Shown: positions 36,313-52,498, counted from the stretch's first letter. The stretch: DNA of 64,000 nucleotides from an uncultured Acidobacteriota bacterium (GCA_963707795.1 OY970174.1:2906206-2970205), one strand, 5' to 3'. Numbers and translations: made by a program. The notes: generated from the sequence alone by a model not told the origin.

Positions 36313-37603
36313 GTGAGTTCACCAGCTACTAGCTCTGCCCGTTCGTCGCGGCGGGGCCGACCGGGGTCCCGTCCGGGAGGCCCGCGCTCGCGCCGCCCGC
36401 GGTCACACACGCCGCACGCGATCGAGACCAACGTCCTGGCGCCCGACATTCCGTGGGAGCCCATTGACGCCGACGCGCCGCCGATCCCGTTCTCGACGCT
36501 GTCGCTGCACCCGCAACTGATGCAGGGCCTGCGCGATCTCGGATACGAGGGCACGCGGCCGGTCCAGGGCGCCGTCATCCCGCGCGCGCTCGACGGCGGC
36601 GACGTCGTCGCCTGCGCGGAGACCGGCACCGGCAAGACCCTCGCCTTCGCGCTGCCGATCCTGCAGCAGCTGCTCAGCGAGCAGCCGCCGTTCGGCGACC
36701 CGGCGCGCGAGCCGTACACGCGCGCGCTGATCCTCGCGCCGACGCGCGAGCTGGTCGTGCAGATCGAGGACGCGTTCGTCGGCCTCACCTATCATTCGCC
36801 GGTTTCGACCGTGCCGGTGTTCGGCGGCATGCCGATGGATCCGCAGGAGCGCGGCCTCAAGGCCGGCGCCGACATCGTCGTCGCCACCCCGGGACGGCTG
36901 ATGGACCACATGCGCCACGGGGCCACCGACTTCGTCCGCCTGCAGGTGCTGGTCCTCGACGAGGCCGACCGCATGATGGACATGGGCTTCTGGCCCGACG
37001 TCCAGCGCATCGTCAGCGCGCTCCCGCCGGAGCGCCAGACGCTGCTGTTCTCGGCGACGATGCCGGGGGAAATCCTGAAACTGGCGCGCGAAGTCCTGCG
37101 CATGCCGCGCTACCTGCAGGTCGGCGCCAATCGCGGCGCCGCGCGGACCATCCGCCACTCGATCGAAGCAGCTCGGCCGCGGCGAGAAGCTGGACTGGCT
37201 CGCGCATTTCGCCCGCCGCGTCGCCGCCGGCCCGGTGCTGGTGTTCGTGCGCACCAAGATCGGGGCCGACCGCGTCGCGCGGCAGTTGCAGGCCAAGCAC
37301 ATCCGCGCCGCCGCGCTGCATGCCGACCGGACGCAGCAGGAACGCCTGCAGGCCGTCGAGGGGTTCCGCTCGGGCAAGCACCCGGTGCTGGTGGCCACCG
37401 ACATCGCCGCACGCGGGCTCGACATCGAGGGCATCGCGCACGTCGTCAACTTCGAGGTGCCGGACACGCCGGAGGCCTACGTGCATCGTGTCGGACGCAC
37501 GGGCCGGGCGGGCGCCGAGGGGCATGCCATCACGCTGGTGGCCCCGGATGAGCAACGCGCCTGGCACGCGCTCGAGGCCCGTATTGGACTCCAGCTTCAA
37601 TAA
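36313..37603 (+). CDS. DEAD-box RNA helicase (RhlE-like), frameshift at ~37168
   Basis: AETGTGKT, PTREL, TPGRL, DEAD, SAT, ARGLD, HRVGRTGR. Confidence 0.92.
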
Positions 37604-37868
37604 CGGCCCGCCGCCGCCGCCCGAGGGCGATGGCGGCGCGGTCGTACCGTCGCCGGCGACGGAGCGGTTCCTGTCCTGCCGGTGGCGCAAGCCCGCCGAA
37701 AACGGCGCTCCCGACCACTGCACGCATCGCGACGTGCTTCCGATGGCGGGCATCGCCGGCTTCGTCCCCGACTCGTGGTGCCCCGACTGCGCCTTCTACA
37801 AGGCCAAGCGGACGCCGCGCAAACGGCCGGAGGAGACCCCGGCCGACGAGTCGTGGCGCCGCTGGTAA
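37584..37868 (+). CDS. Small Cys/His-rich hypothetical protein
   Basis: TTG start after GAGG overlapping the helicase end; SCRW..DHCTH..WCPDC; GC3-biased codons. Confidence 0.55.
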   Translation: MDSSFNNGPPPPPEGDGGAVVPSPATERFLSCRWRKPAENGAPDHCTHRDVLPMAGIAGFVPDSWCPDCAFYKAKRTPRKRPEETPADESWRRW

Positions 37869-37920
37869 AGGCGCCGTCCCGGGCTCGAGTTCGTCCCGCG
37901 TGCGCGCGGCGCCACGCCTG

Positions 37921-39051
37921 TCACGAGCCCAAGCGCTGCATGGCCTGCGCCGCGAGCTTCAGCGCGCCGCCCCGATCCGCCGCTGCGGTCAGGTAGTCGA
38001 CGCGCAGGTAGCGGTCGCCTTTCAGGAACATCAGCGCCCCGGTCATCCCGTCCACGCGGCCTTTGTCCCACGGCCCCTCGATCGCCGCTTTCTCGAGCGG
38101 AGCGACCGCACCGACGAGCGCACCAATCCCGCCGCCGATGTTGAAGGTCGACGCGCCATCGCTCCATTCCGGCGTGATGATGAACGCGCGGTGGCCGGGC
38201 GTGAAGTACGCGCACGCCTTGCCCTTGTCGTACGCAAACGGCGTGTCCTCGACCGCCCGGTAGGGATCGACCACGAGGGGCCCGAGCACCGCTTCGGCTT
38301 CGGCGCGCGTCAGCAGGCTGCACGGATTGCGATCGCCGCCACCCAGCGACAGGACCTGGTAGGTGTTCTCCGCGGCAAACGGCAGGTCGGGTATGCGGTC
38401 GCGCACGTGAGCAGCCAGTTCGATTTGTCGCTCCCTGGTAATCTCAGGCGGCGAAAACACCGAGATCGAGACGTGGCCGACACGTCCGATCCAGGTATAC
38501 GGCATGCCGCTGGCCGAGTCCCAGCCCGGCGGCGGAGCGGCCTTTTTCGCAGCCGCGGACGAGGGCTGGCCCAACTCCCTGGCGAACATCTTCCCGACGG
38601 CCGCCGTGGCCAGGTCGCCGACGATACTGCCGCCTTTCGGGTCGACGGTGACCCTGACCAGCGAATCGAAGTCGCGATCCTCGCCGTCGCGGCCCTTGAT
38701 GCCGTCGATCTCCCGCATCTTGCGGCGGAGTTCGATCATTCTGGTGAACGCCGCGCTCTTCTCGGCCAACGGGTAGGTGCACTCATTGCCCGCCGCGCGA
38801 GGCTGGCCCTCGAGCGTGCCAATGATCCGTTCGACCTCCGCGACGGGAATCCACCCGCAGGCGTCATCGGGTTTGCTCGCGGTCTTCACGGCCGCGGGTG
38901 GCGGGTCGGCCGTGGGTGGCGGGTCGCCCGCGGGTGCCGCCGCTCCTCCGGCGCTGGCCCGGTCCCCGCCCGGGGATCCACACGCGGCGATGGCGATCAG
39001 GACGGCAACGACGGCGAGTCGCGGCGCAAGACGGGAAAGGGATCGCACCAT
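37921..39051 (-). CDS. Lipoprotein with two DUF3558-like repeats
   Basis: Lipobox IAAC, Pro/Ala linker, repeats DACGWIP.AEVERIIG..CTY and NPCSLLT.AEAEAVLG..CAY. Confidence 0.75.
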   Translation of the reverse strand: MVRSLSRLAPRLAVVAVLIAIAACGSPGGDRASAGGAAAPAGDPPPTADPPPAAVKTASKPDDACGWIPVAEVERIIGTLEGQPRAAGNECTYPLAEKSAAFTRMIELRRKMREIDGIKGRDGEDRDFDSLVRVTVDPKGGSIVGDLATAAVGKMFARELGQPSSAAAKKAAPPPGWDSASGMPYTWIGRVGHVSISVFSPPEITRERQIELAAHVRDRIPDLPFAAENTYQVLSLGGGDRNPCSLLTRAEAEAVLGPLVVDPYRAVEDTPFAYDKGKACAYFTPGHRAFIITPEWSDGASTFNIGGGIGALVGAVAPLEKAAIEGPWDKGRVDGMTGALMFLKGDRYLRVDYLTAAADRGGALKLAAQAMQRLGS

Positions 39052-39086
39052 CAGGACATCCTCGCGGTCCCCGACCTGCGGCACAA

Positions 39087-39151
39087 CTACCCGCATGGGT
39101 AGGGTGTCCGCCGGGATCGTCGATCAATGGACCCTACCCGGCTGGGTAGTT
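39087..39151. promoter_or_regulatory. Pair of palindromic operator boxes in a divergent promoter
   Basis: CTACCC-GCAT-GGGTAG (39087-39102) and CTACCC-GGCT-GGGTAG-TT (39134-39151). Confidence 0.8.
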
Positions 39152-39185
39152 TCGATGCGCTGGTCGCAGCGGATACTGTCCGCCC

Positions 39186-40490
39186 GTGAGCGCGGCGATA
39201 CGGTCAGGGGCGTTGGCATTGATGTGGCTCCCCTGCCTCGCGTGCGGGCCCTCGTCACCGCCAGCAAAGACTCGGGTGCAGCCAGCTGCCGCGGCACGAC
39301 CATCGACGGAGAGCCCGCAACCGTCGAACGGCGCCGCCCCGGCGGACCCGTCGACGTCGGGCGGTGTGGCCGGGACCCTCGTGGACGCATTCAGCGCGGC
39401 CACGGGCTCCGGACCACAGGGTATCGAAGCCGACGGCGACTGTCCGATTCTCTACCCTCCACCCGACGACGAGATCGCCGAGCAGGCGGACGCCATCGTG
39501 CCGTTGAAGGTCGGCATGACACTGTCGCACCTGTGGCGCACGATCGACTCACCGGATGACATCGAATGCCTCTCACACGTCGACCGTGTCAGCGCCGAGT
39601 CGGTGCGCGTGTCGAACACCTGCCTGACGGGCAAGGGCGACACCAGCTTTCCTCGAAGTACGTGCCGATCTGACATGCGGAAAGCCCGCGTGTACCAAAC
39701 GATGGTGGGCAGTGCCTCCCCCGAAACGATCCTTGGTGCCACCAGCTATAGCCTCTCGCGCGACGCATTCGTCGAGCTGAAGCGTGACGGAACAACCCGG
39801 CATCAGTACATCGAGTTGAAGTCCAAGGATGGCGGCCCCTTGGCCCGTCGGAGCTTCTTCCAGGTCACGCTCGAAGGGACGCTCACTCTCGAGGGTCGCG
39901 GGGCGATGACGGCGATCGTCAACGAAGCGCCGACGGACCTGCCGGTCCTGAAACTGGCGGGCACGCTGCGGGGCACGGCCCACGACCAGCCGCGCGAGAC
40001 ACGCGTCAGCGCTGCGGTGATCGACGACGAACGCTTCCCGTTGATGTTGGAATATCGGCTGCTCGATCTCGGCGCGCACGAGTTCTCGGTGCGCTACACG
40101 AAGATCTCCTACCCGACGGAGGGCACGATCGAGAAGCGCCTGGCGGAAGCCAGGCGGGTCGACGTGTACGGCATTTACTTCGACTTTGCCAGCGATCGCA
40201 TTCGCACGGAGTCGGAACCGGTGCTGAGCGAGATTGCTGACGCGTTGAAAAAGAACCCGGACTGGACCGTGAGCATTGCCGGACACACCGATAACGTCGG
40301 CAGTGAGGCGGCGAATCTCGACCTCTCGCAGCGCCGCAGCGCCGCGGTTCGGAGGGCGCTCGTCGAGCATCATGGCATCGCCGCCGACCGGCTGGGCACG
40401 ACGGGACACGGCGAAGGCGCGCCCAAGGATACCAACGAGACGCCGGAAGGCCGTGCACGCAATCGCCGGGTGGAATTGGTGCGCCGATGA
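39186..40490 (+). CDS. OmpA-C (peptidoglycan-binding) domain lipoprotein with unknown N-domain
   Basis: Lipobox CLAC; YGIYFDFAS, IAGHTDNVG, LSQRRSAAV, GRARNRRVEL. Confidence 0.88.
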   Translation: MSAAIRSGALALMWLPCLACGPSSPPAKTRVQPAAAARPSTESPQPSNGAAPADPSTSGGVAGTLVDAFSAATGSGPQGIEADGDCPILYPPPDDEIAEQADAIVPLKVGMTLSHLWRTIDSPDDIECLSHVDRVSAESVRVSNTCLTGKGDTSFPRSTCRSDMRKARVYQTMVGSASPETILGATSYSLSRDAFVELKRDGTTRHQYIELKSKDGGPLARRSFFQVTLEGTLTLEGRGAMTAIVNEAPTDLPVLKLAGTLRGTAHDQPRETRVSAAVIDDERFPLMLEYRLLDLGAHEFSVRYTKISYPTEGTIEKRLAEARRVDVYGIYFDFASDRIRTESEPVLSEIADALKKNPDWTVSIAGHTDNVGSEAANLDLSQRRSAAVRRALVEHHGIAADRLGTTGHGEGAPKDTNETPEGRARNRRVELVRR

Positions 40491-40569
40491 CCCTGGTTTC
40501 GGACGCCTGACGGGCCCCGCTCATTAACCTCCAGCGCAACCGTCGCGACTTTCCCCGCAAAACCTCCAC

Positions 40570-40587
40570 CTACTCACTCGGGTAGTT
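40570..40587 (+). promoter_or_regulatory. Operator box copy
   Basis: CTACTC-ACTC-GGGTAG-TT, followed by -10-like TAAGGT at 40610. Confidence 0.72.
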
Positions 40588-40679
40588 TCGGGCCCGATGG
40601 ACCGACTGGTAAGGTTGGACCGGTTCCCCATCGACTCGGCCGCGTGGTCCATCGAGCGAAGCAGAACCGGGTGAGAGCC

Positions 40680-41354
40680 ATGATTCCTCCGCCAATCCGA
40701 CGTGTCGTCACGTGCGTGCCTGCGGCCGCTACCGCCACATTCGTCCTCGCCGCGATGGCATCGGTCGCCGCCGTGGGGCACAACTCCCAGACGGCAGGGC
40801 CGCAGCCGGCGAGTGCCGCTTGCATTGCGATCGTTCTGCCCAGCGCGCAAGGCGTAGACGGAAGCGCCACCGATTTCGGCACGTCGCTGCGGGAGCTGTT
40901 CATGAGTTATCTGACCGGGCCGTCGTTGCGAGCAATTGCCCTGGACGCCCGGCTCGCGTCGCAGGCGATGGAGGAAGCGCGGCAGAAGGAGTGCGGCTAC
41001 ATCCTGACGACAACGGTCACCCGCAAGCGCGACGATGGCGGCGGCCTCGGGCGGGTGTTGGGGCAGGCGGCAGGAACGGCGGCCTGGCATGTGGTGCCAT
41101 ACGGCGCTGGTGCCGGCGCTGCCGCGGCTCGCGGCGCCGCGATTGCCGGCGGGCAGGCCGTCTCGACCATGGCGGCGACGACGCGTGCCAGGGATGAGGT
41201 ACGGCTCGACTATCGCTTCGGACCGCTGGACACGGCCGCGCGCTCGACCCCCCGGAGCGAGAAGCGGAAGGCGAGGAGCGATGGGGAGGACCTGCTGACG
41301 CCGCTCGTCGAGCGCGCGGCGGAGGCGATCGCCGCGAGCGTGGCCAAGAAGTAG
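40680..41354 (+). CDS. Hypothetical exported protein
   Basis: Hydrophobic N-terminus, two Cys in the mature part, Gly/Ala glycine-zipper-like segment; preceded by an operator box. Confidence 0.7.
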   Translation: MIPPPIRRVVTCVPAAATATFVLAAMASVAAVGHNSQTAGPQPASAACIAIVLPSAQGVDGSATDFGTSLRELFMSYLTGPSLRAIALDARLASQAMEEARQKECGYILTTTVTRKRDDGGGLGRVLGQAAGTAAWHVVPYGAGAGAAAARGAAIAGGQAVSTMAATTRARDEVRLDYRFGPLDTAARSTPRSEKRKARSDGEDLLTPLVERAAEAIAASVAKK

Positions 41355-41360
41355 TCCTGC

Positions 41361-42002
41361 CTAGATCAACCGTTCCCGCAACGCCTTGGCGACCGCTTCG
41401 GTCTTCGAGTGGACCTGAAGCTTGCCGTAGATGTTCTTCAGGTGAAACGACACGGTGTTCACGCTGATCCGCATCACATCGGCGGCGGTCTTCTTGTGGT
41501 GGCCGTCGACGAGTAGGCGGAGCAGCTCGTTCTCCTGTGGCGTGAGATGGTAGGACGCGCGCGGCGGCGGCCGAAAGGTGCGAAACACCTTGACGACGCG
41601 CCGCGCGACTTCCGGAGACATCGGGGCGCCGCCGTTGGCCGCCTCTTTCAGCGACTCGAGCAGCCGCTCGGGCGGCGTGTTCTTCAGCAGGTACCCCGAG
41701 GCCCCCGCACATAGTGCGTCGAAGACGTGGTCATCGTTGTCGTGCACGGTCAACGCGACGATGGGAAGGGTGGCAAAGCGCTCGCGAATCTTCCGGATCC
41801 CGTCCAGACCCGACATGCCGGGCAGGCGGAGATCGGTGAGCAGCACATCGGGCTGGTCGCCCTCCAACCAGCCAATGGCCTCTTCCATCGTCCGGAAGCT
41901 CCGCTGACAGCGAAAGCCCTCGGTGTCGTCGATCAGCAACGCCAGCCCTTCGCGCACGTCGTGCTCGTCCTCGACGATGACAACGGACAGCCGATTCGTC
42001 AT
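41361..42002 (-). CDS. NarL/FixJ family response regulator (REC + LuxR HTH)
   Basis: IVEDE, PDVLLTDLRLPGMSG, GASGYLLK, LTPQE..LL, TVSFHLKNIYGKL. Confidence 0.95.
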   Translation of the reverse strand: MTNRLSVVIVEDEHDVREGLALLIDDTEGFRCQRSFRTMEEAIGWLEGDQPDVLLTDLRLPGMSGLDGIRKIRERFATLPIVALTVHDNDDHVFDALCAGASGYLLKNTPPERLLESLKEAANGGAPMSPEVARRVVKVFRTFRPPPRASYHLTPQENELLRLLVDGHHKKTAADVMRISVNTVSFHLKNIYGKLQVHSKTEAVAKALRERLI

Positions 42003-42061
42003 GACACGGGGTTCGGGAACAGCGCGAGAGTACGCCGGCATGGGTTGTCCTGTCACCTACC

Positions 42062-43255
42062 TCATGAGGTAGCGACGGCCGCGCGCGCGCGGCCGCGAAG
42101 CGCCAGCGTCAGGCGCACGGTGGTGCCGCTGCCGGGCGCCGAGACGATCGAGAGCGTGGCGCCGATGCGCTGCGCCCGGCGCTGCATGTTCACGAGACCG
42201 TTTCCGTCGGACGCCCGCTGCGGGTCGAAGCCGATGCCGTCGTCGGCGATGCGCAGGTCGAGCGCTCGTCTGGTACTGCGCACCGTAATGGCGAGGTGAC
42301 GGCAGTGGGCATGGCGGGCGGCATTGTTGACGGCTTCCTTGAAAATCAGGAACACATCCCGCCGAAGGTCCATCGCCACCGGCGGGGCGAGCCCGGCGTC
42401 GCTGACATCGAATCCGAGCGCCAGCGCCGCATCGGTCGCCGTCTCCTCGGCGTGGGCGCGCATCTTGCGCACGACGTCGACCAGGCGGTCCCGCTCGGGA
42501 TCGATCGCCCAGACGATGTCGCTCATCCCACTGACCGACTCGCGGGCAATGTGCGCGATGGCGCTCAGCTGCGCCGCGACCGCGGGCGACGGCTTTTGTC
42601 GGCGTATCAGCTCGCTGAGCACCGCGACGCGGGTCAGGTTCGCGCCGATGTCGTCGTGCAGATCGGTTGCGATACGCGTGCGCATGTTCGCCATCTCCAC
42701 GAGTCGTCGCGTGCGGCGGCGGTACCCGGTGTAGGTCGTCACAATGACCAGGCCGGTCGAGAACAGCAGGAACTCGGCGCGCCGCCAGAACGGCGGCACC
42801 ACCCGGAACGCCACCGTCGCCACTCGGGAGCTGACCATCCCGTCGGCCGCAAGCGCGCGGACAGCGAGGGCGTAGGTGCCCGGGGCGATCCCGACGTAGT
42901 TCACCGCGCCGTGATCGGAGAGGGCCTTCCAGTCGAGGTCCACGCCTTCGAGGCGATATTGGTAGGCGACACCGCTCGACGAGGCGAACCACTGCGGCAC
43001 GAATGCGATGCGAACGGCGTCGCCATGCCGGCCCTGTGCGTGGATGGCCATGGCGCCGGTCAAGCCGGTTGCGGGTGAGATATCTGCGGCAACCGTCGCC
43101 TGGGGATCGAATGTCGTATCCAGCCGGCCGTCAGCCCATAGTCCCACCACTACCACGGACGCAATCACCAGCGTGCCGACCACCACCGGGCGCAGCGATT
43201 GCGCGCGCAATTGGGGGCTTCTGCGTCGACCTGGCGACAGACGGGCCGTGAGCAT
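42062..43255 (-). CDS. Sensor histidine kinase (TM - Y_Y_Y - TM - HisKA_3 - HATPase)
   Basis: YQYRLEGVD.DW...PGTY.L.VRA, PPFW, RIATDLHDDIG, KEAVNNAARHA, DDGIGFD, GNGL.NM. GGAG RBS. Confidence 0.9.
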   Translation of the reverse strand: MLTARLSPGRRRSPQLRAQSLRPVVVGTLVIASVVVVGLWADGRLDTTFDPQATVAADISPATGLTGAMAIHAQGRHGDAVRIAFVPQWFASSSGVAYQYRLEGVDLDWKALSDHGAVNYVGIAPGTYALAVRALAADGMVSSRVATVAFRVVPPFWRRAEFLLFSTGLVIVTTYTGYRRRTRRLVEMANMRTRIATDLHDDIGANLTRVAVLSELIRRQKPSPAVAAQLSAIAHIARESVSGMSDIVWAIDPERDRLVDVVRKMRAHAEETATDAALALGFDVSDAGLAPPVAMDLRRDVFLIFKEAVNNAARHAHCRHLAITVRSTRRALDLRIADDGIGFDPQRASDGNGLVNMQRRAQRIGATLSIVSAPGSGTTVRLTLALRGRARAAVATS

Positions 43256-43372
43256 CGGGGCGTTCTCCGGGCGCGGACCCGACGTACGAGTGCGCGTACT
43301 GGGGAACGCCCGGTTTGAACGGAGAAGCCCTCACGGCCACAGGCGCGCGACCAGGGCGCGCCGAGACCGGAA

Positions 43373-46177
43373 TCAGTGCTGGATCTGCGCGACCCAGCCC
43401 TTGACCTTGTCGAGGAGCGGCCGGTTCTCGGCGGGAATCGAACTTGCCTGGCGCAGCAAACCGTCGTACCCCGCATCGATCAACGGCTCTCCTTCGGCGG
43501 GGCGGCCGAGGGCGGCGAGGGTGGCTCCCAGCATGCTTTGCGCGTAGTAGCGACGCCAGGCATCGGACTTGATGGTCTCGTAGCCGTTCATCGCCTCGGC
43601 GAAATAGGCGTGCGCCGCCTCATGGTCCCGTTGCTCGAACGCGATGTCGCCCAGCGAGACCAGCACGGCCAGCGTATTCACATGCGCCGCTCCGAGCACG
43701 CGCCGGCGGACCTCGAGCACCTGCCGGAACAGCGGGGTTGCTTGCTCCAGCTTGCCCTGCCGCCGGTACGAGTCCGCCAGGTTGTTCATGGTGGCGGCCA
43801 CCAGCGGGTTATCGGCGCCGAGCCGCCGCCGTCTGGCTTCGAGCACTTCGATCAGCAGCGGCTGCGATTGCGCGAACAGACCTTGGGCGTCATACGTGAG
43901 TGCGAGGCTGTTCTGGCTGGTCAGCGTGTCGAGGTGATCGGGACCGAGCGGACGCCGGGCCTCGACGACGGCCTCGAAGACGGTGGCGGCCTCGTCGTAC
44001 TTGCCTTGATGGCGGTAGGCCACACCCAGGCCATTCATCGACGTGAGCGTGCTCGGGTGACCGGGGCCGAGGACGCGCTGCTTGACCGTGACGAGCCGCC
44101 GGTAGACGGCCACTGCCTCGTCGAATCTGCCGAAATCGACGGCCATGGCGGCGAGATTGTTCATCACGGACAGCGTGTCGGCGTGTTCCTCGCCCAGTGT
44201 CTGGCGTTGCACCCGCAAGACCTCGGTCAACAGTTGCAGGGCCTGGTCGCCACGCCGCAGGGTGTGGGACACCCCGGCGAGGTCGGCCATGACGGCCAGC
44301 GTGTCACGATGCCTCGCGCCGAGCAGACGCTTCGTACCCTCCAGCGCGTCGATGAGTAACGCCTCCCGGCGCTCGTACTGAGCCAGGTGACCGTAGTTGT
44401 TGGCCAGGTCCGTCAGGCTGGTCAGCGTGTCGCGATTGTCGCTCCCGAGCACGCGCCTGCGGATGTCCAACGCGCGTTCCAGGTGCGGCATTGCCTCGGC
44501 GTGAAGTCCCATGCCGCCATAAGTGCGGCCGATCGTCTGGTGCATCGCGGCTTCGACGGCCGGTTCGCGATCGAATCGGCCGGGCAGACGCGCGGCCGCG
44601 CGATCGAGCGCGGCCCTGACGGTCAGATTCGGATCCGGCGTCAGGTTCTGCGCCGCCTGCTGTCGTGTGCTGGCCTGGTTGAGCAGGTCGTCCTGCAAGA
44701 ACGCGGTGGTGGCGGTCGCGATCGCCGCCTGCCGATCGGCCCGGCGCGCGGCTTCGAGGGCGCTGTTGCGTTCCTGCTCGGCACGGATCCGCTCGCGCGT
44801 CGCGCTCTCTTCCGCGCGCAGGGCCCGGTCGCGCTCGTCGGTCGCCCGCCGTTCCGCGGCTGTCGCCCGGTCGCGCTCGTCGGTCGCACGGAGTTCGGCG
44901 GACGTTGCGCGATCGCGGGCGAGCAGGGCGGTTTGTTCCGCCCGATCGGCGCGCACCGCTTCCCAGGACGTCGCGGCGATGCCCGCGACGAGAGTGGCGA
45001 AGACCACGGCCGCGGCGCTGACCGCCAGCCGGTGCCGGCGGACGAAGCGAGCCGTGCGATACGGCACGCTCGCCTGGCGCGCGACGATCGGGAGCCGATC
45101 GAGGTGGCGGCGAATATCCTCCGCCAACTGCTCCACCGACTGATAGCGCCGCTGGCGATCGCGCGCCAGCGCCGTCAGGACGATGGTATCGAGGTCGCCG
45201 CGGAGGCGACGGCGCAGACGATCATCGCCCTGCCTACACGTGGTGCTGGGCTTCGGCGGATCCACGGTGGTAATGAGGCGAGCAACATCGGCCGGCGTGC
45301 GCGTCTCGAACGCGAACGGCCCGCGGCCGGCCAGCAGCTCGTACAACAACACGCCCAGCGAATAGACGTCGCTGAGCGCGTCGGCCCGCTGGCCCATCAG
45401 CTGCTCGGGGCTGGCATATTCCGGCGTGAGCGCGCGAAACGCCGCGGCGGTGACCAGCGTCTCGCCGCTACTGGCTGCATGCATGATTCTCGCGATGCCG
45501 AAGTCGAGCAGCTTCGGGACGGCGTCGCGCGAGACGAGGATGTTCGAGGGCTTGATGTCTCGATGCACCACCAGCCGCTGATGCGCATACGAGACCGCCG
45601 CACACACACGCACGAACAGCTCGAGCCGGTCATCGACCCCGAGCTGCCGTTCCTCGCAGTACTGGTGAATCGGCTGTCCGTCCACGTACTCGATCACGAA
45701 GTACGGCCGTCCGTCGGCCGACGTCCCGCCATCCAGCAGCCGCGCGATGTTCGGGTGTTCGAGATCGGCGAGGATCTGGCGCTCGTCGCGGAACTGACGT
45801 AACACGGCGTCGGTGTCCATGCCGCGTTTGATCAGCTTGATCGCCACCTGCTTGTGGAACTGCTCGTCGGCGCGATCGGCGAGATAGACGGCTCCCATCC
45901 CGCCGCGGCCCAACTCACGCACGATGCGATACGGCCCGATCAACGTGCCGGCGGGCACGGCGTCGGACGCCGCCAGCAGCCGGAGTGCGCTGGCGGCAAT
46001 CGGCTCGTGCAAGAACGCGTGCGCGCTGTCGTGCGCCCGAAGAAGCCGCTCGACCGCGGCCGCCAGCGGCTCGTTGCCCGCACATTGCGCGTCGAGAAAT
46101 GCCCGTCGATCGCCGGCGTTCTGCGCCAGGGCCGCGTGGAAGAGATCGTTGATGGCACGCCAGTCGTTCGCGTTCAT
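43373..46177 (-). CDS. Hanks-type Ser/Thr kinase with TM, coiled coil and TPR array
   Basis: GRGGMG, VAIK, HRDIKPSN, DFG, TPEYASPE; 42-aa TPRs (LG.xH.DTL..MNNLA). Confidence 0.95.
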   Translation of the reverse strand: MNANDWRAINDLFHAALAQNAGDRRAFLDAQCAGNEPLAAAVERLLRAHDSAHAFLHEPIAASALRLLAASDAVPAGTLIGPYRIVRELGRGGMGAVYLADRADEQFHKQVAIKLIKRGMDTDAVLRQFRDERQILADLEHPNIARLLDGGTSADGRPYFVIEYVDGQPIHQYCEERQLGVDDRLELFVRVCAAVSYAHQRLVVHRDIKPSNILVSRDAVPKLLDFGIARIMHAASSGETLVTAAAFRALTPEYASPEQLMGQRADALSDVYSLGVLLYELLAGRGPFAFETRTPADVARLITTVDPPKPSTTCRQGDDRLRRRLRGDLDTIVLTALARDRQRRYQSVEQLAEDIRRHLDRLPIVARQASVPYRTARFVRRHRLAVSAAAVVFATLVAGIAATSWEAVRADRAEQTALLARDRATSAELRATDERDRATAAERRATDERDRALRAEESATRERIRAEQERNSALEAARRADRQAAIATATTAFLQDDLLNQASTRQQAAQNLTPDPNLTVRAALDRAAARLPGRFDREPAVEAAMHQTIGRTYGGMGLHAEAMPHLERALDIRRRVLGSDNRDTLTSLTDLANNYGHLAQYERREALLIDALEGTKRLLGARHRDTLAVMADLAGVSHTLRRGDQALQLLTEVLRVQRQTLGEEHADTLSVMNNLAAMAVDFGRFDEAVAVYRRLVTVKQRVLGPGHPSTLTSMNGLGVAYRHQGKYDEAATVFEAVVEARRPLGPDHLDTLTSQNSLALTYDAQGLFAQSQPLLIEVLEARRRRLGADNPLVAATMNNLADSYRRQGKLEQATPLFRQVLEVRRRVLGAAHVNTLAVLVSLGDIAFEQRDHEAAHAYFAEAMNGYETIKSDAWRRYYAQSMLGATLAALGRPAEGEPLIDAGYDGLLRQASSIPAENRPLLDKVKGWVAQIQH

Positions 46178-46755
46178 GACGCCGTTCCCAGGTCCGCCGC
46201 ATTGATCGCGTCGTACAGCCATGCGCGCGCGAAGCTCCATTCGCGCTCGATCGTCGCCGGCGACAGCTGCAGCACTTCGGCCATCTCTTCGGTAGTGAGA
46301 CCACCGAAGAACTTCAGCTCCACGATGCGGCCTTTTCGCGCGTCAATCGCCTGCAGGCGATTGAGGGCGTCGTGGACCTCGATGAGGTTCGCCGCCTGAC
46401 GGTCCGGCACGTCGAGGGCGACGGTCAGCGGCACGCGCGCCATCTGGCCGCCGCGTTTGGCCGCCGCGCGCGTGCGCGCGTGGTTCACCAGCACGCGCCG
46501 CATCATGATGGCCGCCAGCCCGATGAACTGCGCACGGTTTCGCCAATCGACCCGGCGCTGATCGATCAGCCGCAGGTAGGCCTCATGGACGAGGGCGGTG
46601 GGCTGCAAGGTGTGATCCGGCCGTTCCTGACGCAGGTACGACCGTGCAATCCGGCGCAGCTCTTCGTAGACGATGGGCGACAGATCGTCCCGCGCCCGGT
46701 CGTGGCCGCTGCCCCAGTCCAAGAGAAGCTCGGTCGCGGCACCCGGTGCGGACAT
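46174..46755 (-). CDS. ECF-type sigma factor, kinase-associated (ECF43/TIGR02999-like)
   Basis: VYEELRRIA, HTLQPTALVHEAYLRL, MRRVLVNHAR..A.KRGG, REWSFARAWL. ATGA overlap with the kinase. Confidence 0.92.
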   Translation of the reverse strand: MSAPGAATELLLDWGSGHDRARDDLSPIVYEELRRIARSYLRQERPDHTLQPTALVHEAYLRLIDQRRVDWRNRAQFIGLAAIMMRRVLVNHARTRAAAKRGGQMARVPLTVALDVPDRQAANLIEVHDALNRLQAIDARKGRIVELKFFGGLTTEEMAEVLQLSPATIEREWSFARAWLYDAINAADLGTAS

Positions 46756-46901
46756 CTCGATCCTGCTGAGCCCTTTTGGGTTGAGTGCCCGAGTCTAGCA
46801 CGGTGGCGCGCAGCGGGCTGCTGGTGCCGGGAATCTCGCGCCGTTCGTGCGTCTTGAGGTGAGGCAAAGGACCGCTCGACGTCCCCGGGCATCGTTTACG
46901 A

Positions 46902-47117
46902 GGTCACCGACACCATCGGCAGCGATCGCTACGACGATTCGCTCTCGGCGGAGCGGGCGGCTGCCGTCAGGCGGCGCTGGTGCGGGACCTCGGCGTCGAC
47001 GCGGCCAGGCTCTCGATGGTCGGGTACGGGGAGAGCCGGCTGATCGAACGCAGCGACACCCTGGCCGGCAGGGCGCGCAACCGCCGCGTCGAGCTGGTGG
47101 GCGCCGGCGGCCAGTGA
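46902..47117 (+). pseudogene. Orphan OmpA-C domain remnant
   Basis: With two frame corrections it reads GH(T)DTIGSDRYDDSLSAERAAAVR.ALVRDLGVDAARLSMVGYGESRL...GRARNRRVELV. No N-terminal part is present. Confidence 0.78.
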
Positions 47118-47121
47118 AGAC

Positions 47122-47610
47122 TCACTTCAACTTCGGGATGATCGCGTTCGCCAGCGCGATCGTGTTCGGCTTCATCTGTTCGGCCGTGCCCTGGAACGGC
47201 ACGCCCATCTGGATGGTGAACGTGCGCGCACCGGTATAACCGATCAACTCGGCGAAGAGGTTTCTGTTGTTGTGGAAGTACGCACGATCGCCGACTCCTG
47301 GCACAGGCACCCAGTCCTTCTTCTGCTTCGCGGTCTGGTCGATGAAGGCCGGCGAGAACGCGTCGATCTGCAGCCTGATGTCGGCATAGTCACAGGCGGA
47401 GCCGGACGTGCCGACCGGCTCCTCCTGCGGCGGCATGTCGAGAACGAGCTTGTTCACCGCCCCGGAGACCTTCATCACGAGGTCTTTCGGCAGCAGCGAG
47501 CACGCACCGAGGGGTTGCGTGGCGGTCTGCGCCACCGCGCCCGCGTCGAGCCTCACCGCATCGAACGCGAGCACGGAGATGATGAGCAGTGACATGGCGA
47601 TGTGCCGCAT
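47122..47610 (-). CDS. Secreted DUF3558-like protein
   Basis: AGGAG RBS, signal peptide, ACSLLPKDLV, SACDY, PVPGVGDRAY. Confidence 0.75.
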   Translation of the reverse strand: MRHIAMSLLIISVLAFDAVRLDAGAVAQTATQPLGACSLLPKDLVMKVSGAVNKLVLDMPPQEEPVGTSGSACDYADIRLQIDAFSPAFIDQTAKQKKDWVPVPGVGDRAYFHNNRNLFAELIGYTGARTFTIQMGVPFQGTAEQMKPNTIALANAIIPKLK

Positions 47611-47796
47611 GATTCGTTCTCCTACGCGCCTGGGTGTATTCCGCGGTTCACAGGACGAGCGCACTCTGCCAGGACGCAGCGCGTCGAAGGCTGGCAACGA
47701 CATCACCTACGTCGCGACACTCATCCGCGTCGGCCGCGTTGATGTCTATCCTGCCTGCGATGATCGGTTTCCACGGACGGGTAGACGCGTCACCCC

Positions 47797-48864
47797 TCAC
47801 TGTCTGGTCAGCTCGACACGCCGGTTCTGCGCCCGACCCTCCGGGGTGTCGTTCGACCCCTTCGGCGACGCCTCACCCTTGCCACCGGTCGACAGGCGCC
47901 CGGGTACGACCTTGAACCGCGCGACCAATGCGTCGCGCACCGCCGCGGCACGCTGCTGCGACAGCTCCAGGTTCGCCGACTCGCTCCCGATGCCATCGGT
48001 GTGCCCGTCGATGCGCAACTTCCACTCCGGGTTGCGTTGCAGCGCGTCGGCAATTTCCTGCAGCACCCGTTCCGATTCAGGGCGGATGGCCGCGCTGGCG
48101 AAACCGAAATAGATGCCGTAGACCTCGGTGGTACGTCGCTCGCTGAGATCGCGTTCGAGGCTCTCGGCCACCGGAAAATCCAGCTTCAGAATCTTCGAAT
48201 TGCGGGTCTCGTCCCGCCACCGGAGGATGATCGGGTTGTCGGGATCATCGAGGACGTAGATGTCGGCGCGGCGCGTCAGGGCGCCGTTGCCGACCTCCGC
48301 GCGAGCGTGGATCGCCGGCAGCTCCACGACGCGTCCATTGACGAGCACGGGCACGGCCACGGGCGTCGTTTCGATGCGACTGACTGTCCCGTTCAACGAC
48401 TGCACAGCGGTTTGATCGCGTGTCGCGGCCGAGGTCGCGACCAGCAGCGTCAGTGCCGCTCGGCCGTCGCGCCGCAGGTCGTCGATGACGGCACCGGAGA
48501 AGAACGGCGTCGTCCCGGGAAAGGCCTCCGGATCGTCCTCGCCGTACCAGTTGCGCATCGTACGGGCGGTGCGCTGGTCGTGCATCAGGACTCTGCGCAC
48601 CGCAGTGGCCGATTGCGTACCGCCCGACGGATCCGGCGCTTCGAAGGAGAACGTCAGGCGGTAAGCTTCCGGCGTGACGGATTGCACTCTGAGGATGACC
48701 TCGGCGTCGCCGGCGGCATGGCTGACGGCACCAATGATCGTCAGCCCGGCGACCAGCGGCACACGCACGGGCTCGCGCCCTTGCCCTGACACCGCAGTAC
48801 AGCAGATGCCGAATCCAGTCAGGCCAGCCGCCAGACTACGCGCGACGCGCGAACGAATGTGCAT
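47797..48864 (-). CDS. Exported OmpA-C domain protein, paralogue of 39186..40490
   Basis: Signal peptide; YGIYFGFAS, IDGHTDGIG, LSQQRAAAV, GRAQNRRVEL. Confidence 0.88.
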   Translation of the reverse strand: MHIRSRVARSLAAGLTGFGICCTAVSGQGREPVRVPLVAGLTIIGAVSHAAGDAEVILRVQSVTPEAYRLTFSFEAPDPSGGTQSATAVRRVLMHDQRTARTMRNWYGEDDPEAFPGTTPFFSGAVIDDLRRDGRAALTLLVATSAATRDQTAVQSLNGTVSRIETTPVAVPVLVNGRVVELPAIHARAEVGNGALTRRADIYVLDDPDNPIILRWRDETRNSKILKLDFPVAESLERDLSERRTTEVYGIYFGFASAAIRPESERVLQEIADALQRNPEWKLRIDGHTDGIGSESANLELSQQRAAAVRDALVARFKVVPGRLSTGGKGEASPKGSNDTPEGRAQNRRVELTRQ

Positions 48865-48921
48865 CTGGCTGGGGCCTCGAACAGAGCCGTATCTGTAGCA
48901 CCCGCCGCGTCGGCCTCACAA

Positions 48922-48980
48922 CTACCCGGAAGGGTAGGTGACGCGGCCGGCGGACCGATGGCCTACTCAGGCGGGTAGTT
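48922..48980. promoter_or_regulatory. Second pair of palindromic operator boxes in a divergent promoter
   Basis: CTACCC-GGAA-GGGTAG (48922-48937) and CTACTC-AGGC-GGGTAG-TT (48963-48980); -10-like TACCAT at 49003. Confidence 0.8.
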
Positions 48981-49019
48981 ACGTTGCGGTCGGCCGGCGA
49001 TCTACCATCCCAACCGTCA

Positions 49020-49711
49020 ATGCTCAGCGCAGCCTCGGTGCTCGCGGCGATGGTGATGGTGCTGCTGGCGAACACGCCGGCGCACCCGAGCCGTGCGGCC
49101 AAGCAGACCGTCCAGCCGCGGAGAAGACGGGGATTGCCGAGTGCGACGAGTACGTCGTCATGGCCTCGGCGTGTCTGCCGCGCATGTGCGAGGTGGAACG
49201 GGGGCTGAGCGAGCTCGAACTGTCGCTCCATCGGGAGATGCTGGCGAAGACGGTCGAGCTCAAGGGCCGCGACGAAGCCGCGAAGGCGTGCGCGCGGGAT
49301 ATCGTCGGGCTGCTGCAGGACGACCCGTATGGCTGCTACGACGCGGAGCGCGCCAGGCGGGGCATGCCGGCCGCCGGCATTCAGGACGTGCAGGTCCGTC
49401 CGCAAGCCACCAGCGTGACGATCTCGTTTCGGGCGGGTCCGCCGGCCTCAGGCGACGGGCCCTGGGAGGTCGCCATCGTCCTCGAGGACCTCGAGCCTCT
49501 TGTCCAGTACGTCCCGATGCGAACCGGCAACGCCTTCGTGGTCAATACCGCCGGCGACCGGCCCGTGACCACCGTGAGCGAAGCGACCGGACAGCCATCG
49601 AACACACCGCAGCCGATCCGCCTCGACGCTGGCGTGCCGTATTGCTTCACGATCAAATCGGCGGGCGGCGAGGAACGCCGGGGGCACTTCACGACCCTGC
49701 GCGCGCAGTAG
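49020..49711 (+). CDS. Hypothetical exported Cys-containing protein (probable frameshift at ~49115)
   Basis: Signal peptide MLSAASVLAAMVMVLLA lies in one frame. The body KTGIAECDEY..C..C..C..C plus a beta-rich C-domain lies in another. Confidence 0.55.
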
Positions 49712-49822
49712 GTATCCCCCGCCCGGCAACAACAACTGCCGCGCCGTACTGGCCGGCACGACAACGCCGCGGGGCGGGCTGTCCTGCCCCCGAGATGGTC
49801 GTGCTTCCGCGTGGACGGGCCA

Positions 49823-52498
49823 CTAGTCCGCGCGCATCGCCGTGACCGGCGCCACCCGCAGGGCGCGCCGCGCCGGCACGTACGACGCGAACAGCACCGC
49901 GCCCGCGGTGAGCAGCACGACCGCGCCGAACGCGACCGGATCGGTCGCGGCAACCCCGAACAGCATGCCCTCGACCACCTGCGTGAGCGCCAGCGCCGCG
50001 GCGAGTCCCACGACGATGCCGGCGGCGGCGAGGCGGGCGCCGGTGCCCATGACCAGGTGCAGGACATCGGCGGAGGCGGCGCCGAGCGCGAGGCGGACGC
50101 CGATCTCGCGCGTGCGTTCGGCGACGAGGTACGAGACCAGGCCGTAGATGCCGAGCGCGGCGAGCAGCAGCGCCGTGGCGGCGAAGACGCCAACCAGCGT
50201 CAGGCTGAACCGCCGCCCGGCCAGCGCGCGATCGACCGCGTCCTCGACGGTCCGCGCCTGCACGGGCAGATCGGCGTCGATCGTGCGGATGACGCGGGTC
50301 GCTTCCGCCGCCAGGCTGCCGGCGCGCTCGGCACGCAGCACGACGGTGAACCGCGACGCCAGGCGCTGGCGGTAATGCCCGTAGAACAGCGGTCCCGGCA
50401 GCGTCTCCGGCGACAGCTCGCGCACGTCGCCGACGACGCCCACGACGCGGAAGCCGCGCAAGTCGCCGTCCATGTTGCCGAACTGGACGTAGCGGCCCAG
50501 CGGGTCCTGGTCCGGCCATTTCGCCGCCGCCAGCGACTCGCTGATGACGGCGACGTGCGGCGCGTCGGGACCGTCGCCCTCGTCGAACAGCCGCCCGCGC
50601 ACGAGCGGGATCCCCATCGCCGTGAAATAGCCCGCGCTGGCGATGCGGTAGCCGGCAAAGCCCGCGCGCGCTTTCACCTCGTCGCCGAGCCGGGCCAGGT
50701 CGTCGACGCTCTGGAGCTCGTCGGCCCGGGTCATCTCGATGAACTGGCCGTTGGGGAAAAAGCCGGTGGCGAGCGGGAACGTGCTGACCAGGCCCGCCTG
50801 CTGCACGCCGGGCAGCGCGCCCAGGCGCGTCAGCATCTCCTGCTGCGCGGCGCGGCGGCGCTCCTGCACGCCCGGATCGCGCGAGGAGACCCAGGTCAGG
50901 TCGAGCAACTGGGCGCCGTCGGTGCGGAAGCCCGGGCTGACCGCCAGCAGTGCGCCGAAGCTGCGGCCGAGCAGGCCGGCGCCGGCCAGCAACACGATCG
51001 TCAACGCCACCTGCGCCACGACCAGCCCCTGCCGCACGCGCTCGCTGCTGCGCCCGCCGGCCATCGTCCGCGTGCCCTCGCTCAACGTGTCACGAATCTG
51101 CGCCTGAGCCGCGCGGGCCGCGGTGGCCACCCCCAGCAACACCGCCGTCAGCAGCGCGAGCCCGACGGCAAACCACAGCACGGTCCAGTCGATCGTGATG
51201 TCCTGCATCCGGGGCAGGTTCCCCGGCTGCAGCGCGGTCAGCACGCGCACGCCGAGCCAGGCGATCGCGACGCCGACCGCCGTGGCCGCGGCCGACAGGA
51301 CCAGCGCCTCGGCCAGGAGCTGGCGCGTGATGCGCGCGCCGCTGGCGCCGACGGCCAGCCGCACCGCGATCTCGCGCCGCCGGGTCGAGGCGCGCGCCAG
51401 CTGCAGGTTCGACACGTTGAGGCACGCGATCACCAGGAGCAACAGCGCGGCGCCGAACAGCAGCAGCAGGACGGGACGGGTCGCCGCCGTCAGCTGTTCG
51501 CGGAGCGGCACCGCGGTGGCATCCGACATCCAGGTCTGGTCGCCGTGCTCTTCTTTCAGCGCACGCGACAGCGCGCTCAGCTCGGTCCGCGCCGTTTGCA
51601 GGCTCACGCCGGGCTGCAGGCGCCCCACGACGAGCCAGTTGTGCGCGGTCCGCGACGTCTGTGGCGGCGTCCGCTCGCGCGCGGTCCAGAACTCGCTCGC
51701 CGCCGGGTAGTCGAAGCCGGGCGGCATGACGCCAATCACCTGGTGCATCGCCTCGTCGATCCGCAGCGTCAGGGTGTCGAGCGGCGCGCCGCCGAGCCGG
51801 GCCTGCCACAGCCGATAGCCGACGACGACCGCCGCCGCGGCGCCGGTCCGCGTCTCGTCGTCGCGGAACGCGCGTCCGACGATCGGGGCGACGCCCATCA
51901 CCGTGAAGAACTCGCGCGAGACCGCCGCGCCAGCCGTCATCGCGGTGTCGGCGCCGAACCCCACGGGGACCGATCCGGCGCCCATCTGCGCCATGGCCTG
52001 CACGCTGCGCGTGCGCGCCTTCCAGTCGGCGAAGTTGGGCTCGGACACCGTGTTGTTGCGCTGCCCGGTCGCGTCGATCTGGAACAGCCGCACGATGCGG
52101 TCGGGGTCGGGGTACGGCAGCGGGCGCAGCAGCACGCCCTCGACGACGCTGAACACGGCCGTGGCCGCGCCGATGCCGAGGCCCAGCGTCATGATGGAGA
52201 CGCCGGCGAAGGCGCGGGCGCGGCCGAGCACCCGGGCCCCGTAGCGAAGGTCGCGGGCCAGGTCCTCGAGCATGGCCGGGCGGAACTCGTCGCGGGCCTG
52301 CTCCTTCACGTGCTCGACGCCGCCGAACTTCACGTGGGCGCGCCGCCGCGCCTCGCGCGGATCCATGCCCCGCGCGATGTTCTTGGCCGTCTGCTCGTCG
52401 AGGTGAAAGCGAATCTCCTCGTCGAGCTCACGTTCGATGCGGGTGCGGGTCACGACCGATCGCCACCGCCGCATGCGCTCGCTCCAGGGTTCTGCCAT
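49823..52498 (-). CDS. ADOP family (acidobacterial duplicated orphan) MacB-like ABC permease
   Basis: ELDEEIRFH..ARRRA..FGG, DLRYGAR.L, TLGLGIGA.TAVFSVV, two FtsX halves (RRREIAVRLAVGA; RTREIGVRLALGA). Confidence 0.93.
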   Translation of the reverse strand: MAEPWSERMRRWRSVVTRTRIERELDEEIRFHLDEQTAKNIARGMDPREARRRAHVKFGGVEHVKEQARDEFRPAMLEDLARDLRYGARVLGRARAFAGVSIMTLGLGIGAATAVFSVVEGVLLRPLPYPDPDRIVRLFQIDATGQRNNTVSEPNFADWKARTRSVQAMAQMGAGSVPVGFGADTAMTAGAAVSREFFTVMGVAPIVGRAFRDDETRTGAAAAVVVGYRLWQARLGGAPLDTLTLRIDEAMHQVIGVMPPGFDYPAASEFWTARERTPPQTSRTAHNWLVVGRLQPGVSLQTARTELSALSRALKEEHGDQTWMSDATAVPLREQLTAATRPVLLLLFGAALLLLVIACLNVSNLQLARASTRRREIAVRLAVGASGARITRQLLAEALVLSAAATAVGVAIAWLGVRVLTALQPGNLPRMQDITIDWTVLWFAVGLALLTAVLLGVATAARAAQAQIRDTLSEGTRTMAGGRSSERVRQGLVVAQVALTIVLLAGAGLLGRSFGALLAVSPGFRTDGAQLLDLTWVSSRDPGVQERRRAAQQEMLTRLGALPGVQQAGLVSTFPLATGFFPNGQFIEMTRADELQSVDDLARLGDEVKARAGFAGYRIASAGYFTAMGIPLVRGRLFDEGDGPDAPHVAVISESLAAAKWPDQDPLGRYVQFGNMDGDLRGFRVVGVVGDVRELSPETLPGPLFYGHYRQRLASRFTVVLRAERAGSLAAEATRVIRTIDADLPVQARTVEDAVDRALAGRRFSLTLVGVFAATALLLAALGIYGLVSYLVAERTREIGVRLALGAASADVLHLVMGTGARLAAAGIVVGLAAALALTQVVEGMLFGVAATDPVAFGAVVLLTAGAVLFASYVPARRALRVAPVTAMRAD

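Follow-up and report, generated by a model that had tools for sequence, protein, structure and literature searches.

A genomic island of a soil acidobacterium predicted to be an acquired, self-regulating envelope regulon with an ECF43-type sigma factor and a NarL-type regulator

A stretch of 64,000 nucleotides from an uncultured soil acidobacterium (GCA_963707795.1 OY970174.1:2906206-2970205; this whole stretch is called the window below, and positions are counted from its first letter) carries on its minus strand four co-oriented genes for an extracytoplasmic function (ECF) sigma factor, a Ser/Thr kinase, a histidine kinase along with a response regulator, which are surrounded by genes for exported envelope proteins. 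This arrangement raises two questions. First, do the regulators and the exported proteins form one regulon, and through which DNA site? Second, in what order do the ECF sigma factor and the two-component system act? A first-pass annotation, made by a model from the sequence, had proposed a self-contained and probably acquired switch in two tiers, a phosphorylated ECF sigma factor first and the two-component system second, which induces the surrounding exported proteins. It was found that these genes lie on a genomic island of ~12 kb (37867-49822, no strand assigned), which is found only in this soil acidobacterium and carries the ECF sigma factor, two kinases, a NarL-type regulator and six envelope-protein genes, denoted here A to F. 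Of that earlier interpretation the self-contained, acquired block, the ECF43 type of the sigma factor, the shared promoter box and the co-occurrence of the genes are borne out, but the serial order is not. Genes in this high-GC window (~71% GC overall) were called by codon-position GC and checked with Pfam and NCBIfam, both of which support the four-gene cassette; several start codons sit downstream of the longest open reading frame (ORF) start.

A 16-bp palindrome stands ahead of five of the cargo genes (A, B, C, E and F) and follows the consensus C-CTACyC-N4-GGGTAG-TT. In the window, CTACYC-N4-GGGTAG occurs five times where 0.03 sites would be expected; in the 5.35-Mb genome (G000) there are six exact sites, five of them in the island and the sixth upstream of a paralog of genes B and E. 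Every box points its GGGTAG-TT end at its gene. The box facing A is at 39087-39102 on the minus strand, with the ATG of A 35 nt past it, and the box facing B is at 39134-39149 on the plus strand, with GATACT 22 nt and the GTG start 36 nt past it. Those facing C (40570-40585, +) and F (48963-48978, +) are followed at 24 nt by TAAGGT and TACCAT, respectively, and the box facing E (48922-48937, −) is the top match, at 29.2 bits, of the matrix scan described below. To these five sites, already noticed in the first-pass annotation, we add a sixth and weaker one, CTACCTCATGAGGTAG, which faces the response regulator gene at 42057-42072 (−), overlaps the stop codon of the histidine kinase gene and scores 18.3 bits (rank 11 genome-wide). 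It has a TA 24 nt after it, and genome G301, of the same order, carries a box at the same junction between histidine kinase and regulator genes.

When 19 box sites from G000, G049, G006 and G301 were aligned, the base preceding the box was C in 17 of them and the second base past the box was T in all 19. In 12 of these sites the box is followed, at a distance of exactly 24 nt, by a TA dinucleotide; with 23-25 nt allowed the count rises to 14 of 19, and nearly no TA occurs at other offsets between 10 and 44. This fixed register to a −10-like TAnnnn element would place the box centre near −44, and the TTGnnn abutting the box could be a weak −35 element. The predicted transcription start coincides with the start codons of A and B, 35-36 nt past the box, and the mRNA of A may be leaderless. 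No consensus sigma-70 promoter was found in the island, which fits dependence on an activator. Judged by these features, the box promoters look like activator-dependent promoters of the housekeeping sigma factor, not like ECF promoters.

A weight matrix trained on 12 sites from G049, G006 and G301 only was used to scan G000 with a threshold of at least 14 bits. It returned 21 matches, of which the top eight all fall at the island and at two satellite cargo loci. Across the 401 genomes of the order, the strict 18-mer form of the box is multi-copy in only two, G000 and G301; two other genomes hold single matches, no more than the reversed-pattern control gave.

The two satellite loci are built as follows. 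Satellite locus 2 (G000:C1:802809-805436) has a one-mismatch box at 805421-805436, then an OmpA paralog of the B/E type and then a paralog of A (802809-803957, 40-44% identity). Its GC content at third codon positions (GC3) is low, 0.79-0.81, and the locus seems to be specific to this genome: relatives of A were found in none of 40 related genomes, nor in a scan of all species genomes. Satellite locus 3 (G000:C1:5111133-5114991) has an exact box at 5111133 followed by a B/E paralog split over two frames. Its second box, at ~5112654, emerged from the matrix scan as a new site among the top eight matches and lies ahead of the genes of two secreted proteins, paralogs of 350 and 385 aa.

The candidate protein for this site is the NarL/FixJ-type response regulator (41361-42056, −), which consists of a receiver (REC) domain (PF00072, 92 bits) and a GerE-type helix-turn-helix (HTH) domain (PF00196, 55 bits), matches the NarL model with an E-value of 3.6e-37, and likely starts at the ATG at 42002. 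It retains the phospho-acceptor Asp (in DLRLP) and the conserved Lys (in KNTP). Its recognition helix, NTVSFHLKN, is identical in the regulator of G301 and in an HTH-only protein of G049, and differs in all three of the other NarL-type paralogs of G000 that were compared. Comparable sets of genes are found together elsewhere in the order, so that the refuting condition set in the first-pass annotation does not apply. Box-like palindromes are present in only 2 of 21 loci with an E homolog, L029 of G049 and L072 of G301; both loci encode a close homolog of the regulator HTH (67% and 76% identity, respectively). In the examined loci, the box never occurs unless a regulator gene specifying this recognition helix accompanies it, whether the ECF-kinase pair is present or absent. 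Loci L063 of G336 and L081 of G211, which hold an ECF-kinase pair together with cargo, have neither a box nor such a regulator.

The variants in other genomes differ in their signalling genes. G301 has seven boxes, a full-length histidine kinase with its regulator and abundant cargo, and no ECF-kinase pair within ~17 kb past the histidine kinase. G049 has the ECF sigma factor, the Ser/Thr kinase and, directly downstream of the latter, an 85-residue HTH protein without a receiver, and it has no histidine kinase. As judged from this gene content, the histidine kinase-regulator and ECF-kinase modules are separable. In G006, a genome of the same genus as G000, a contig breaks off within an E homolog, of which the start is present, next to two variant boxes and a homolog of C. 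The cargo under the box can also be of another kind: in L072 (G301:C110, 7176-11823) a box-preceded operon encodes a 960-aa transglutaminase-like membrane protein, a weakly GIDE-like protein and a LemA protein, and its content indicates that the regulon cargo differs between genomes.

The histidine kinase gene (42062-43255, −) encodes a short protein of 397 aa, in which a transmembrane segment, a Y_Y_Y domain, a second transmembrane segment, HisKA_3 and HATPase follow one another, all three Pfam domains scoring above their cutoffs and the H, N and G boxes being intact. Relatives match it only at its residues ~80-390, mostly within open frames of ~1000 aa, and in the kinase of G301, 1038 residues long, the alignment is confined to residues 715-1033 (50% identity); the island kinase has therefore lost its large sensor. 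What is absent is an N-terminal beta-propeller sensor of ~640 residues, present in the full-length homologs of G301 and G006; a membrane anchor is left, and on the periplasmic side ~110 residues that include the Y_Y_Y domain.

We propose a reading that joins these direct observations, namely the gene content, the island status, the statistics and register of the box and its co-occurrence with the regulator: the island is an acquired, self-regulating envelope regulon in which the response regulator activates the cargo and its own promoter, and the ECF-kinase pair is a second, separable input. We give this reading a probability of roughly 0.55. The regulator would bind the 16-bp palindrome as a dimer, next to the weak −35 element and 24 nt upstream of the TAnnnn −10 element. 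From there it would activate the housekeeping-sigma-type promoters of the five island cargo genes, its own gene through the box at the junction with the histidine kinase gene, and three more promoters at the two satellite loci with paralogous cargo. The cognate short histidine kinase, with only its small periplasmic Y_Y_Y domain left, would be one input, and the ECF43-type sigma factor with its membrane Ser/Thr kinase would be the second, acting in parallel on the same envelope function. The cargo would comprise peptidoglycan-anchored open barrels that possibly bind lipids (B and E), lipoproteins resembling the sensor of PknH (A and D) and the PelC/CsgG-like protein C, folds which together suggest that the connection of the outer membrane to the cell wall is being remodelled or kept under surveillance.

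Several points weigh against this reading. The 19 aligned sites are not independent, as they include orthologous promoters (those of C and E in G049 and G006) and possibly upstream regions that were duplicated along with paralogs. Two unrelated sites of the genome score above the box facing the regulator gene in the matrix scan. In G006 the nearest homolog of the regulator is 59% identical, has a diverged recognition helix and lies on another contig. The role given to the ECF-kinase pair is taken solely from gene neighbourhood. Finally, an OmpA remnant, the frameshifted gene F and the sensor-less histidine kinase are marks of decay, and parts of the island may be inactive.

The place of the ECF-kinase pair bears on the second question. 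The sigma factor (46174-46755, −) scores 181 bits against PF07638 (cutoff 21.1) and 210 bits against TIGR02999 (cutoff 126), and carries QPTA at residues 51-54, a position placed by eye, where ordinary sigma factors have the acidic motif of region sigma2.2. In the available portions of PMC13147305 and PMC8999054, the hallmarks of kinase-activated ECF43 factors are given as the replacement of the acidic DAED/DxxD motif of sigma2.2 by a QTTA-like one, a conserved Thr and an adjacent Hanks-type kinase. All the hallmarks that were tested are present here (the sigma regions, the neighbouring Hanks-type kinase and the QTTA-like motif with its Thr), in line with the ECF43-like class proposed from the sequence beforehand; the sigma factor is thus of ECF43 type by these hallmarks, not by ECF group models, and its phosphorylation by the kinase is predicted. 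Further kinase-linked ECF groups exist besides ECF43, according to the accessible text of PMC7826278.

The Hanks-type Ser/Thr kinase (43373-46177, −; Pkinase, 152 bits) continues past its kinase domain with a hydrophobic segment, the only one and C-terminal of that domain, a coiled-coil region and seven TPR_12 repeats. Its ATG overlaps the stop codon of the sigma factor gene as ATGA, an arrangement by which the two genes are predicted to be translationally coupled. The catalytic motifs of the Ser/Thr kinase, the histidine kinase and the response regulator are all intact, and with the QPTA motif of the sigma factor the signalling parts look functional.

Does the ECF sigma factor then command the two-component system? 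In a strict serial cascade, the kinase would phosphorylate the ECF factor, the ECF factor would transcribe the histidine kinase-regulator genes (or the bare HTH gene), and the regulator would turn on the cargo. Such a cascade accords with the order of the genes on one strand, in which the histidine kinase gene follows the ECF-kinase pair after a gap of 117 nt, and with the ECF43 phospho-Thr motif of the sigma factor. The arrangement in G049 favours it too: the 85-aa HTH protein encoded next after the kinase lacks a receiver and with it any phospho-input, and control would have to act on its amount. However, no shared ECF-type promoter was recognised upstream of the ECF, kinase, histidine kinase and HTH genes of four genomes, in a comparison that had no published ECF43 consensus as guide, and none was recognised at the cargo promoters of the box-less loci; the ECF genes have TAnnnT −10 elements of their own; and the regulator gene has its own predicted box promoter. 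The modules also occur apart, with boxes and the histidine kinase-regulator genes but no nearby ECF-kinase pair in G301, and with the ECF-kinase pair and cargo but neither box nor regulator in G211 and G336. The two tiers in series, as the first-pass annotation had ordered them, are therefore not sustained by the promoters or by the variants of G301, G211, G336 and G049, and we regard the cascade as unlikely, if still the likeliest of the rival explanations.

A bolder account arranges the three variants in a series, along which control of one and the same operator and regulon would pass from a His-Asp pathway to signalling by a Ser/Thr kinase. G301, with its full propeller kinase and regulator, would stand at its beginning, and G000, where the kinase is sensor-less, the regulator is kept and the ECF-kinase pair has been inserted upstream, would be the intermediate. 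The end of the series would be G049, without histidine kinase or receiver and with the bare HTH directly behind the Ser/Thr kinase. The Hanks-type kinase would then have become the input that actually drives a LuxR-type activator, either through the ECF43 sigma factor or by direct phosphorylation. The regulon so reached would be a new envelope module, made up of a ring protein like PelC and CsgG, of barrels that bind lipids and are anchored to peptidoglycan, and of PknH-like lipoproteins. Ser/Thr kinases do cross-phosphorylate response regulators in other bacteria, as described in the portions of PMC13689823 and PMC6010298 that could be consulted. We hold this takeover to be a tentative and rather unlikely idea.

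The proposed regulon is described above as acquired, and this status follows from the absence of the island at a conserved site in close relatives together with its shifted composition; by these two signs the island is predicted to be horizontally acquired, as had been suspected from the sequence at first sight. Homology with genomes of the same genus stops at 37866 and picks up at 49823-49835 in junction alignments. The genes on either side encode a helicase and a MacB/FtsX-type permease, and the intergenic site between them is a variable hotspot. A DNA search of 11 same-genus genomes placed both flanks on a single contig, with 343-2217 bp between them, in six cases (G001, G004, G005, G007, G008 and G010), the other five having the flanks on separate contigs or just one flank among the matches listed, and an island-length match was found in none of the 11. 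In other genomes of the genus the insertion site holds different short low-GC inserts (G001 compared with G004 and G005). The GC content per 2-kb window is 0.66-0.69 in the island against 0.70-0.74 in the flanks, and the GC3 of all nine island ORFs falls between the 7th and 30th percentiles of 3035 genome ORFs, retained by a strict filter against antisense shadow ORFs; the lower GC3 noticed earlier is thus confirmed. No tRNA was found between 30 and 56 kb of the window, no integrase or transposase domain among the island genes with Pfam and NCBIfam, and no end repeats when the largest families of repeats were inspected. The frequency of terminator-like sites in the island does not exceed chance, so the transcription units are putative. 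Contigs from three DNA metagenome runs (shares 0.06-0.09) were short and none spans the island, the parts left uncovered being uninformative.

The island is also composed of parts with different affinities. Close homologs of its genes carry the label Vicinamibacterales. The nearest relatives are split between families, the regulator and the histidine kinase being closest to those of G301 and the ECF factor, E and C to those of G049, and the island is therefore a mosaic.

The cargo proteins are of three main sorts. B and E are paralogs (36% identity over 337 residues), each with an N-domain of ~200 residues followed by an OmpA-C domain. Gene B (39186-40490, +) encodes a lipoprotein by its lipobox and matches Pfam OmpA (PF00691) with 85 bits, and gene E (47797-48864, −) encodes a secreted protein that matches it with 84 bits. 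The structure model of E has a pLDDT (predicted local distance difference test) of 88, and its OmpA-C part matches known structures with Z 17.6 and a root-mean-square deviation (rmsd) of 2.5 over 118 residues. Its N-domain (residues 35-232) is modelled as an open beta-barrel, with best matches to BDI_3050 and DUF1849 (Z 10.6, 168 and 175 residues aligned) and further ones to LmcA (Z 10.1), lipovitellin and MucB (Z 8.0). These open-barrel matches, Z 8-10.6 over 134-175 residues, are modestly above the typical best background of Z 7-8. The N-domain has no sequence-family match, and the ESM Atlas gave nothing usable (best score 0.76). It is present in 36 of 401 genomes of the order, a count that takes in two unpublished genomes, and in 1 of 50 other genomes of the family of G000; this sparse spread, like that of A, agrees with an acquisition of the island. 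The two OmpA-C paralogs and the decayed third copy of the earlier description are upheld, the third being a remnant of the last 42 codons of OmpA-C (46974-47099, +) with 50-52% identity to the C-termini of B and E in tblastn (E-value 1.5e-9) and a match to positions 62-98 of 98 of Pfam OmpA (E-value 0.0018).

A and D resemble DUF3558. Gene A (37921-39051, −) encodes a lipoprotein, by its lipobox, with two DUF3558-like, that is PknH-sensor-like, halves and a Cys pair in each; its match to Pfam DUF3558 (PF12079) has an E-value of 1.5e-7 and 32.0 bits in two stretches, below the cutoff of 34.1. Gene D (47122-47610, −) encodes a small secreted protein with a signal peptide and a DUF3558-like Cys pair, and has homologs in G049 and G301. 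It matches nothing in Pfam, lacks a box, and is probably expressed along with E. For the two DUF3558-like proteins that had been named, the shared Cys pattern stands, but the family assignment lies under the Pfam cutoff for A and lacks any match for D; the likeness comes from the pattern of the Cys pairs and from naturally fused proteins, where a DUF3558 domain is recognised by Pfam (P0048). The metagenomic lipoproteins P0046 and P0048 (570-577 aa) each combine in one chain a domain of the DUF3558 type with an open barrel like that of E and with OmpA-C, and these fusions link the A/D type to the B/E type. For a complex of D with the N-domain of E, a pair picked from the natural fusions, the predicted score was 0.01 against a mark of 0.32, which is evidence neither way. 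The available part of PMC13491425 describes DUF3558 as PknH-like, of undescribed function and enriched in the regulon of an ECF factor (SigM) of Mycobacterium abscessus.

Gene C (40680-41354, +) encodes an exported protein of a family with more than 650 homologs and no Pfam or NCBIfam match. Its model (pLDDT 77, with a low-confidence Gly/Ala-rich insert at 132-153) has an alpha/beta fold that may be like that of PelC, CsgG and the N-domain of TolB. In Foldseek, PelC was best (E-value 3.5e-5, template modelling score 0.40 by query and 0.60 by target), with FlgT, TraT, the TolB N-domain and CsgG also found; an ESM Atlas search gave a weak lead to CsgG/LpoB only (0.88). PelC, FlgT, TraT, the N-domain of TolB and CsgG are outer-membrane-associated and often ring-forming. 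Six pairs of C-family and E-family matches fall on contigs of equal size (4885, 3592, 11269, 23335, 2510 and 1820), a coincidence that hints at a wide occurrence of the divergent C-E gene pair in metagenomes.

Gene F (49020-49711, +) encodes a Cys-rich secreted protein whose signal peptide, starting at the ATG at 49020, and mature part lie in separate frames, with a frameshift near 49120. Its homolog in G107 reads in one frame, and on a related contig (run X1, depth ~2) one extra base after 49120 would join the frames, so that either an indel of the assembly or a strain-specific lesion could account for the shift. C and F had been described as two unknown Cys-containing secreted proteins; like D they have no family match, but F is corrected in being frameshifted in this assembly. 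The frameshifts in F, in the B/E paralog of satellite locus 3 and in the flanking helicase, taken with the 91% completeness of this single-contig genome, suggest indel errors in the assembly. As modelled, the cargo folds point to outer-membrane and peptidoglycan-linked functions, with lipid binding possible.

Given the mosaic and the damaged genes, the island might instead be a collection of recombined fragments in which regulators and cargo no longer cooperate. The OmpA remnant, the frameshift of F and that of the paralog at locus 3, the missing sensor of the histidine kinase and the split of nearest relatives between G301 and G049 would all agree with such decay. Against it, the catalytic motifs are all intact, the ECF and kinase genes retain their predicted translational coupling, nine boxes retain both consensus and register, and the one-frame F of the related contig lets its frameshift be an assembly indel. 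A decaying island appears improbable to us.

A different objection concerns the box itself, which could be part of a promoter of the ECF holoenzyme or be bound by an unlinked factor instead of the regulator. Its gene-proximal side is asymmetric, with the T found at all 19 sites, and abuts the −35 position, and the ECF-kinase pair adjoins this cargo in four genomes, as an ECF promoter would have it. The box is nevertheless a perfect 6-4-6 inverted repeat, typical for a dimeric HTH protein; it was found neither at L063 nor at L081, the two loci with an ECF-kinase pair but no regulator; G301 has boxes without an ECF gene within ~17 kb; and the −10 element is of the TAnnnn type. This objection we find quite improbable. 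That the palindrome is a transcribed RNA hairpin, for which a 6-bp stem and a 4-nt loop would be possible, or a repeat copied along with duplicated genes, since several boxes precede paralogs, is hardly credible, for the box is also ahead of the unrelated A, C, F and regulator genes, its stem is kept and its loop variable, its register to the −10 element puts it upstream of the predicted transcription start, and it is confined to three loci, not dispersed.

Some observations were made in the surroundings of the island. The hotspot, at window 37604-37866 and at the matching site in L087-L090, varies across the genus: it consists of 343 nt in G010, of 790 nt including an ORF like a four-helix bundle in G001, and of 1.7 kb with 60% GC and a membrane protein of ~557 aa, 92% identical between the two, in G004 and G005. 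The flanking DEAD-box-type helicase (36313-37603, +) is apparently split across two frames near 37100-37350, its Helicase_C being in the frame of 37079-37603, and the helicase of G005, compared for the frameshift, is likewise split. Further left, at 33453-35984 (+), lies the gene of an 843-aa protein in which an AMP-binding enzyme is fused to a carrier-protein domain and an acyltransferase domain; it is conserved in the same-genus genomes.

The proposed self-regulating regulon would be a small one that is fully specified, with an operator, a register, nine predicted sites and a candidate regulator, in a phylum for which next to no regulation has been elucidated. It places three of the chief signalling types of bacteria, an ECF sigma factor, a Ser/Thr kinase and a two-component system, in one gene string, and the natural gain and loss of its modules makes it a case for the swapping of signalling inputs. 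Its cargo families, with more than 650 homologs of C and the E type in 36 of 401 genomes of the order, are without described function, and their folds direct attention to the interface of outer membrane and cell wall.

How does this island compare with known systems? Its signalling parts are all of known kinds, an ECF43-like sigma factor with its kinase, a NarL-type regulator and a Y_Y_Y/HisKA_3 kinase. The sigma factor resembles EcfK with PknS of Xanthomonas citri and EcfP with PknT of Vibrio parahaemolyticus, in that a transmembrane Ser/Thr kinase is adjacent, no anti-sigma domain was detected among the neighbouring genes here, and Q-x-T-A, with a phospho-acceptor Thr, stands in place of the acidic motif of sigma2.2, as far as the available portions of PMC13147305 and PMC8999054 describe it. 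Unlike those pairs, the kinase here has a long TPR region, the pair joins a two-component system in one gene string, and the cargo consists of envelope lipoproteins, not of type VI secretion or polymyxin-resistance genes. In the SigE-CseABC system of Streptomyces coelicolor (ECF39, responding to cell-wall damage), genes for an ECF sigma factor, a histidine kinase, a response regulator and a lipoprotein likewise stand together and are envelope-linked; there, however, in what the accessible text of PMC8999054 reports, transcription of the sigma gene is driven by the two-component system, without participation of a Ser/Thr kinase, whereas here the regulator has a predicted operator ahead of the cargo and the sigma factor is of the kinase-activated type.

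Activators of the LuxR/NarL family bind a palindrome that overlaps or abuts the −35 element, as at the lux box. The candidate regulator is like them in its GerE-type HTH, an inverted repeat of 16-20 bp with its centre in the low −40s, a weak −35 element and an autoregulatory site, and unlike the lux-box activators in the half-site CTACyC, in a predicted centre at about −44 and in having as one relative an 85-aa HTH protein without receiver. The histidine kinase shares Y_Y_Y, the transmembrane segment, HisKA_3 and HATPase with the propeller kinases of G301 and G006, but its ~640-residue propeller is gone and one transmembrane segment with ~110 periplasmic residues is left in its place. B and E combine an anchor like Pal and OmpA-C (Z 17.6) with a putative open barrel like LolA, RseB (MucB), LmcA and DUF1849 (Z 8-10.6), and differ from Pal and from proteins of the LolA/RseB type in having both in one protein, where ligand binding by the modelled barrel is putative. 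In searches of the literature outside subscription journals, on DUF3558 and on a Vicinamibacter sigma factor and kinase, no description of this system was found. What is new here is the presence of three signalling types in one acquired gene string, together with a defined operator and regulon, variants by gain and loss of modules, and uncharacterised cargo families.

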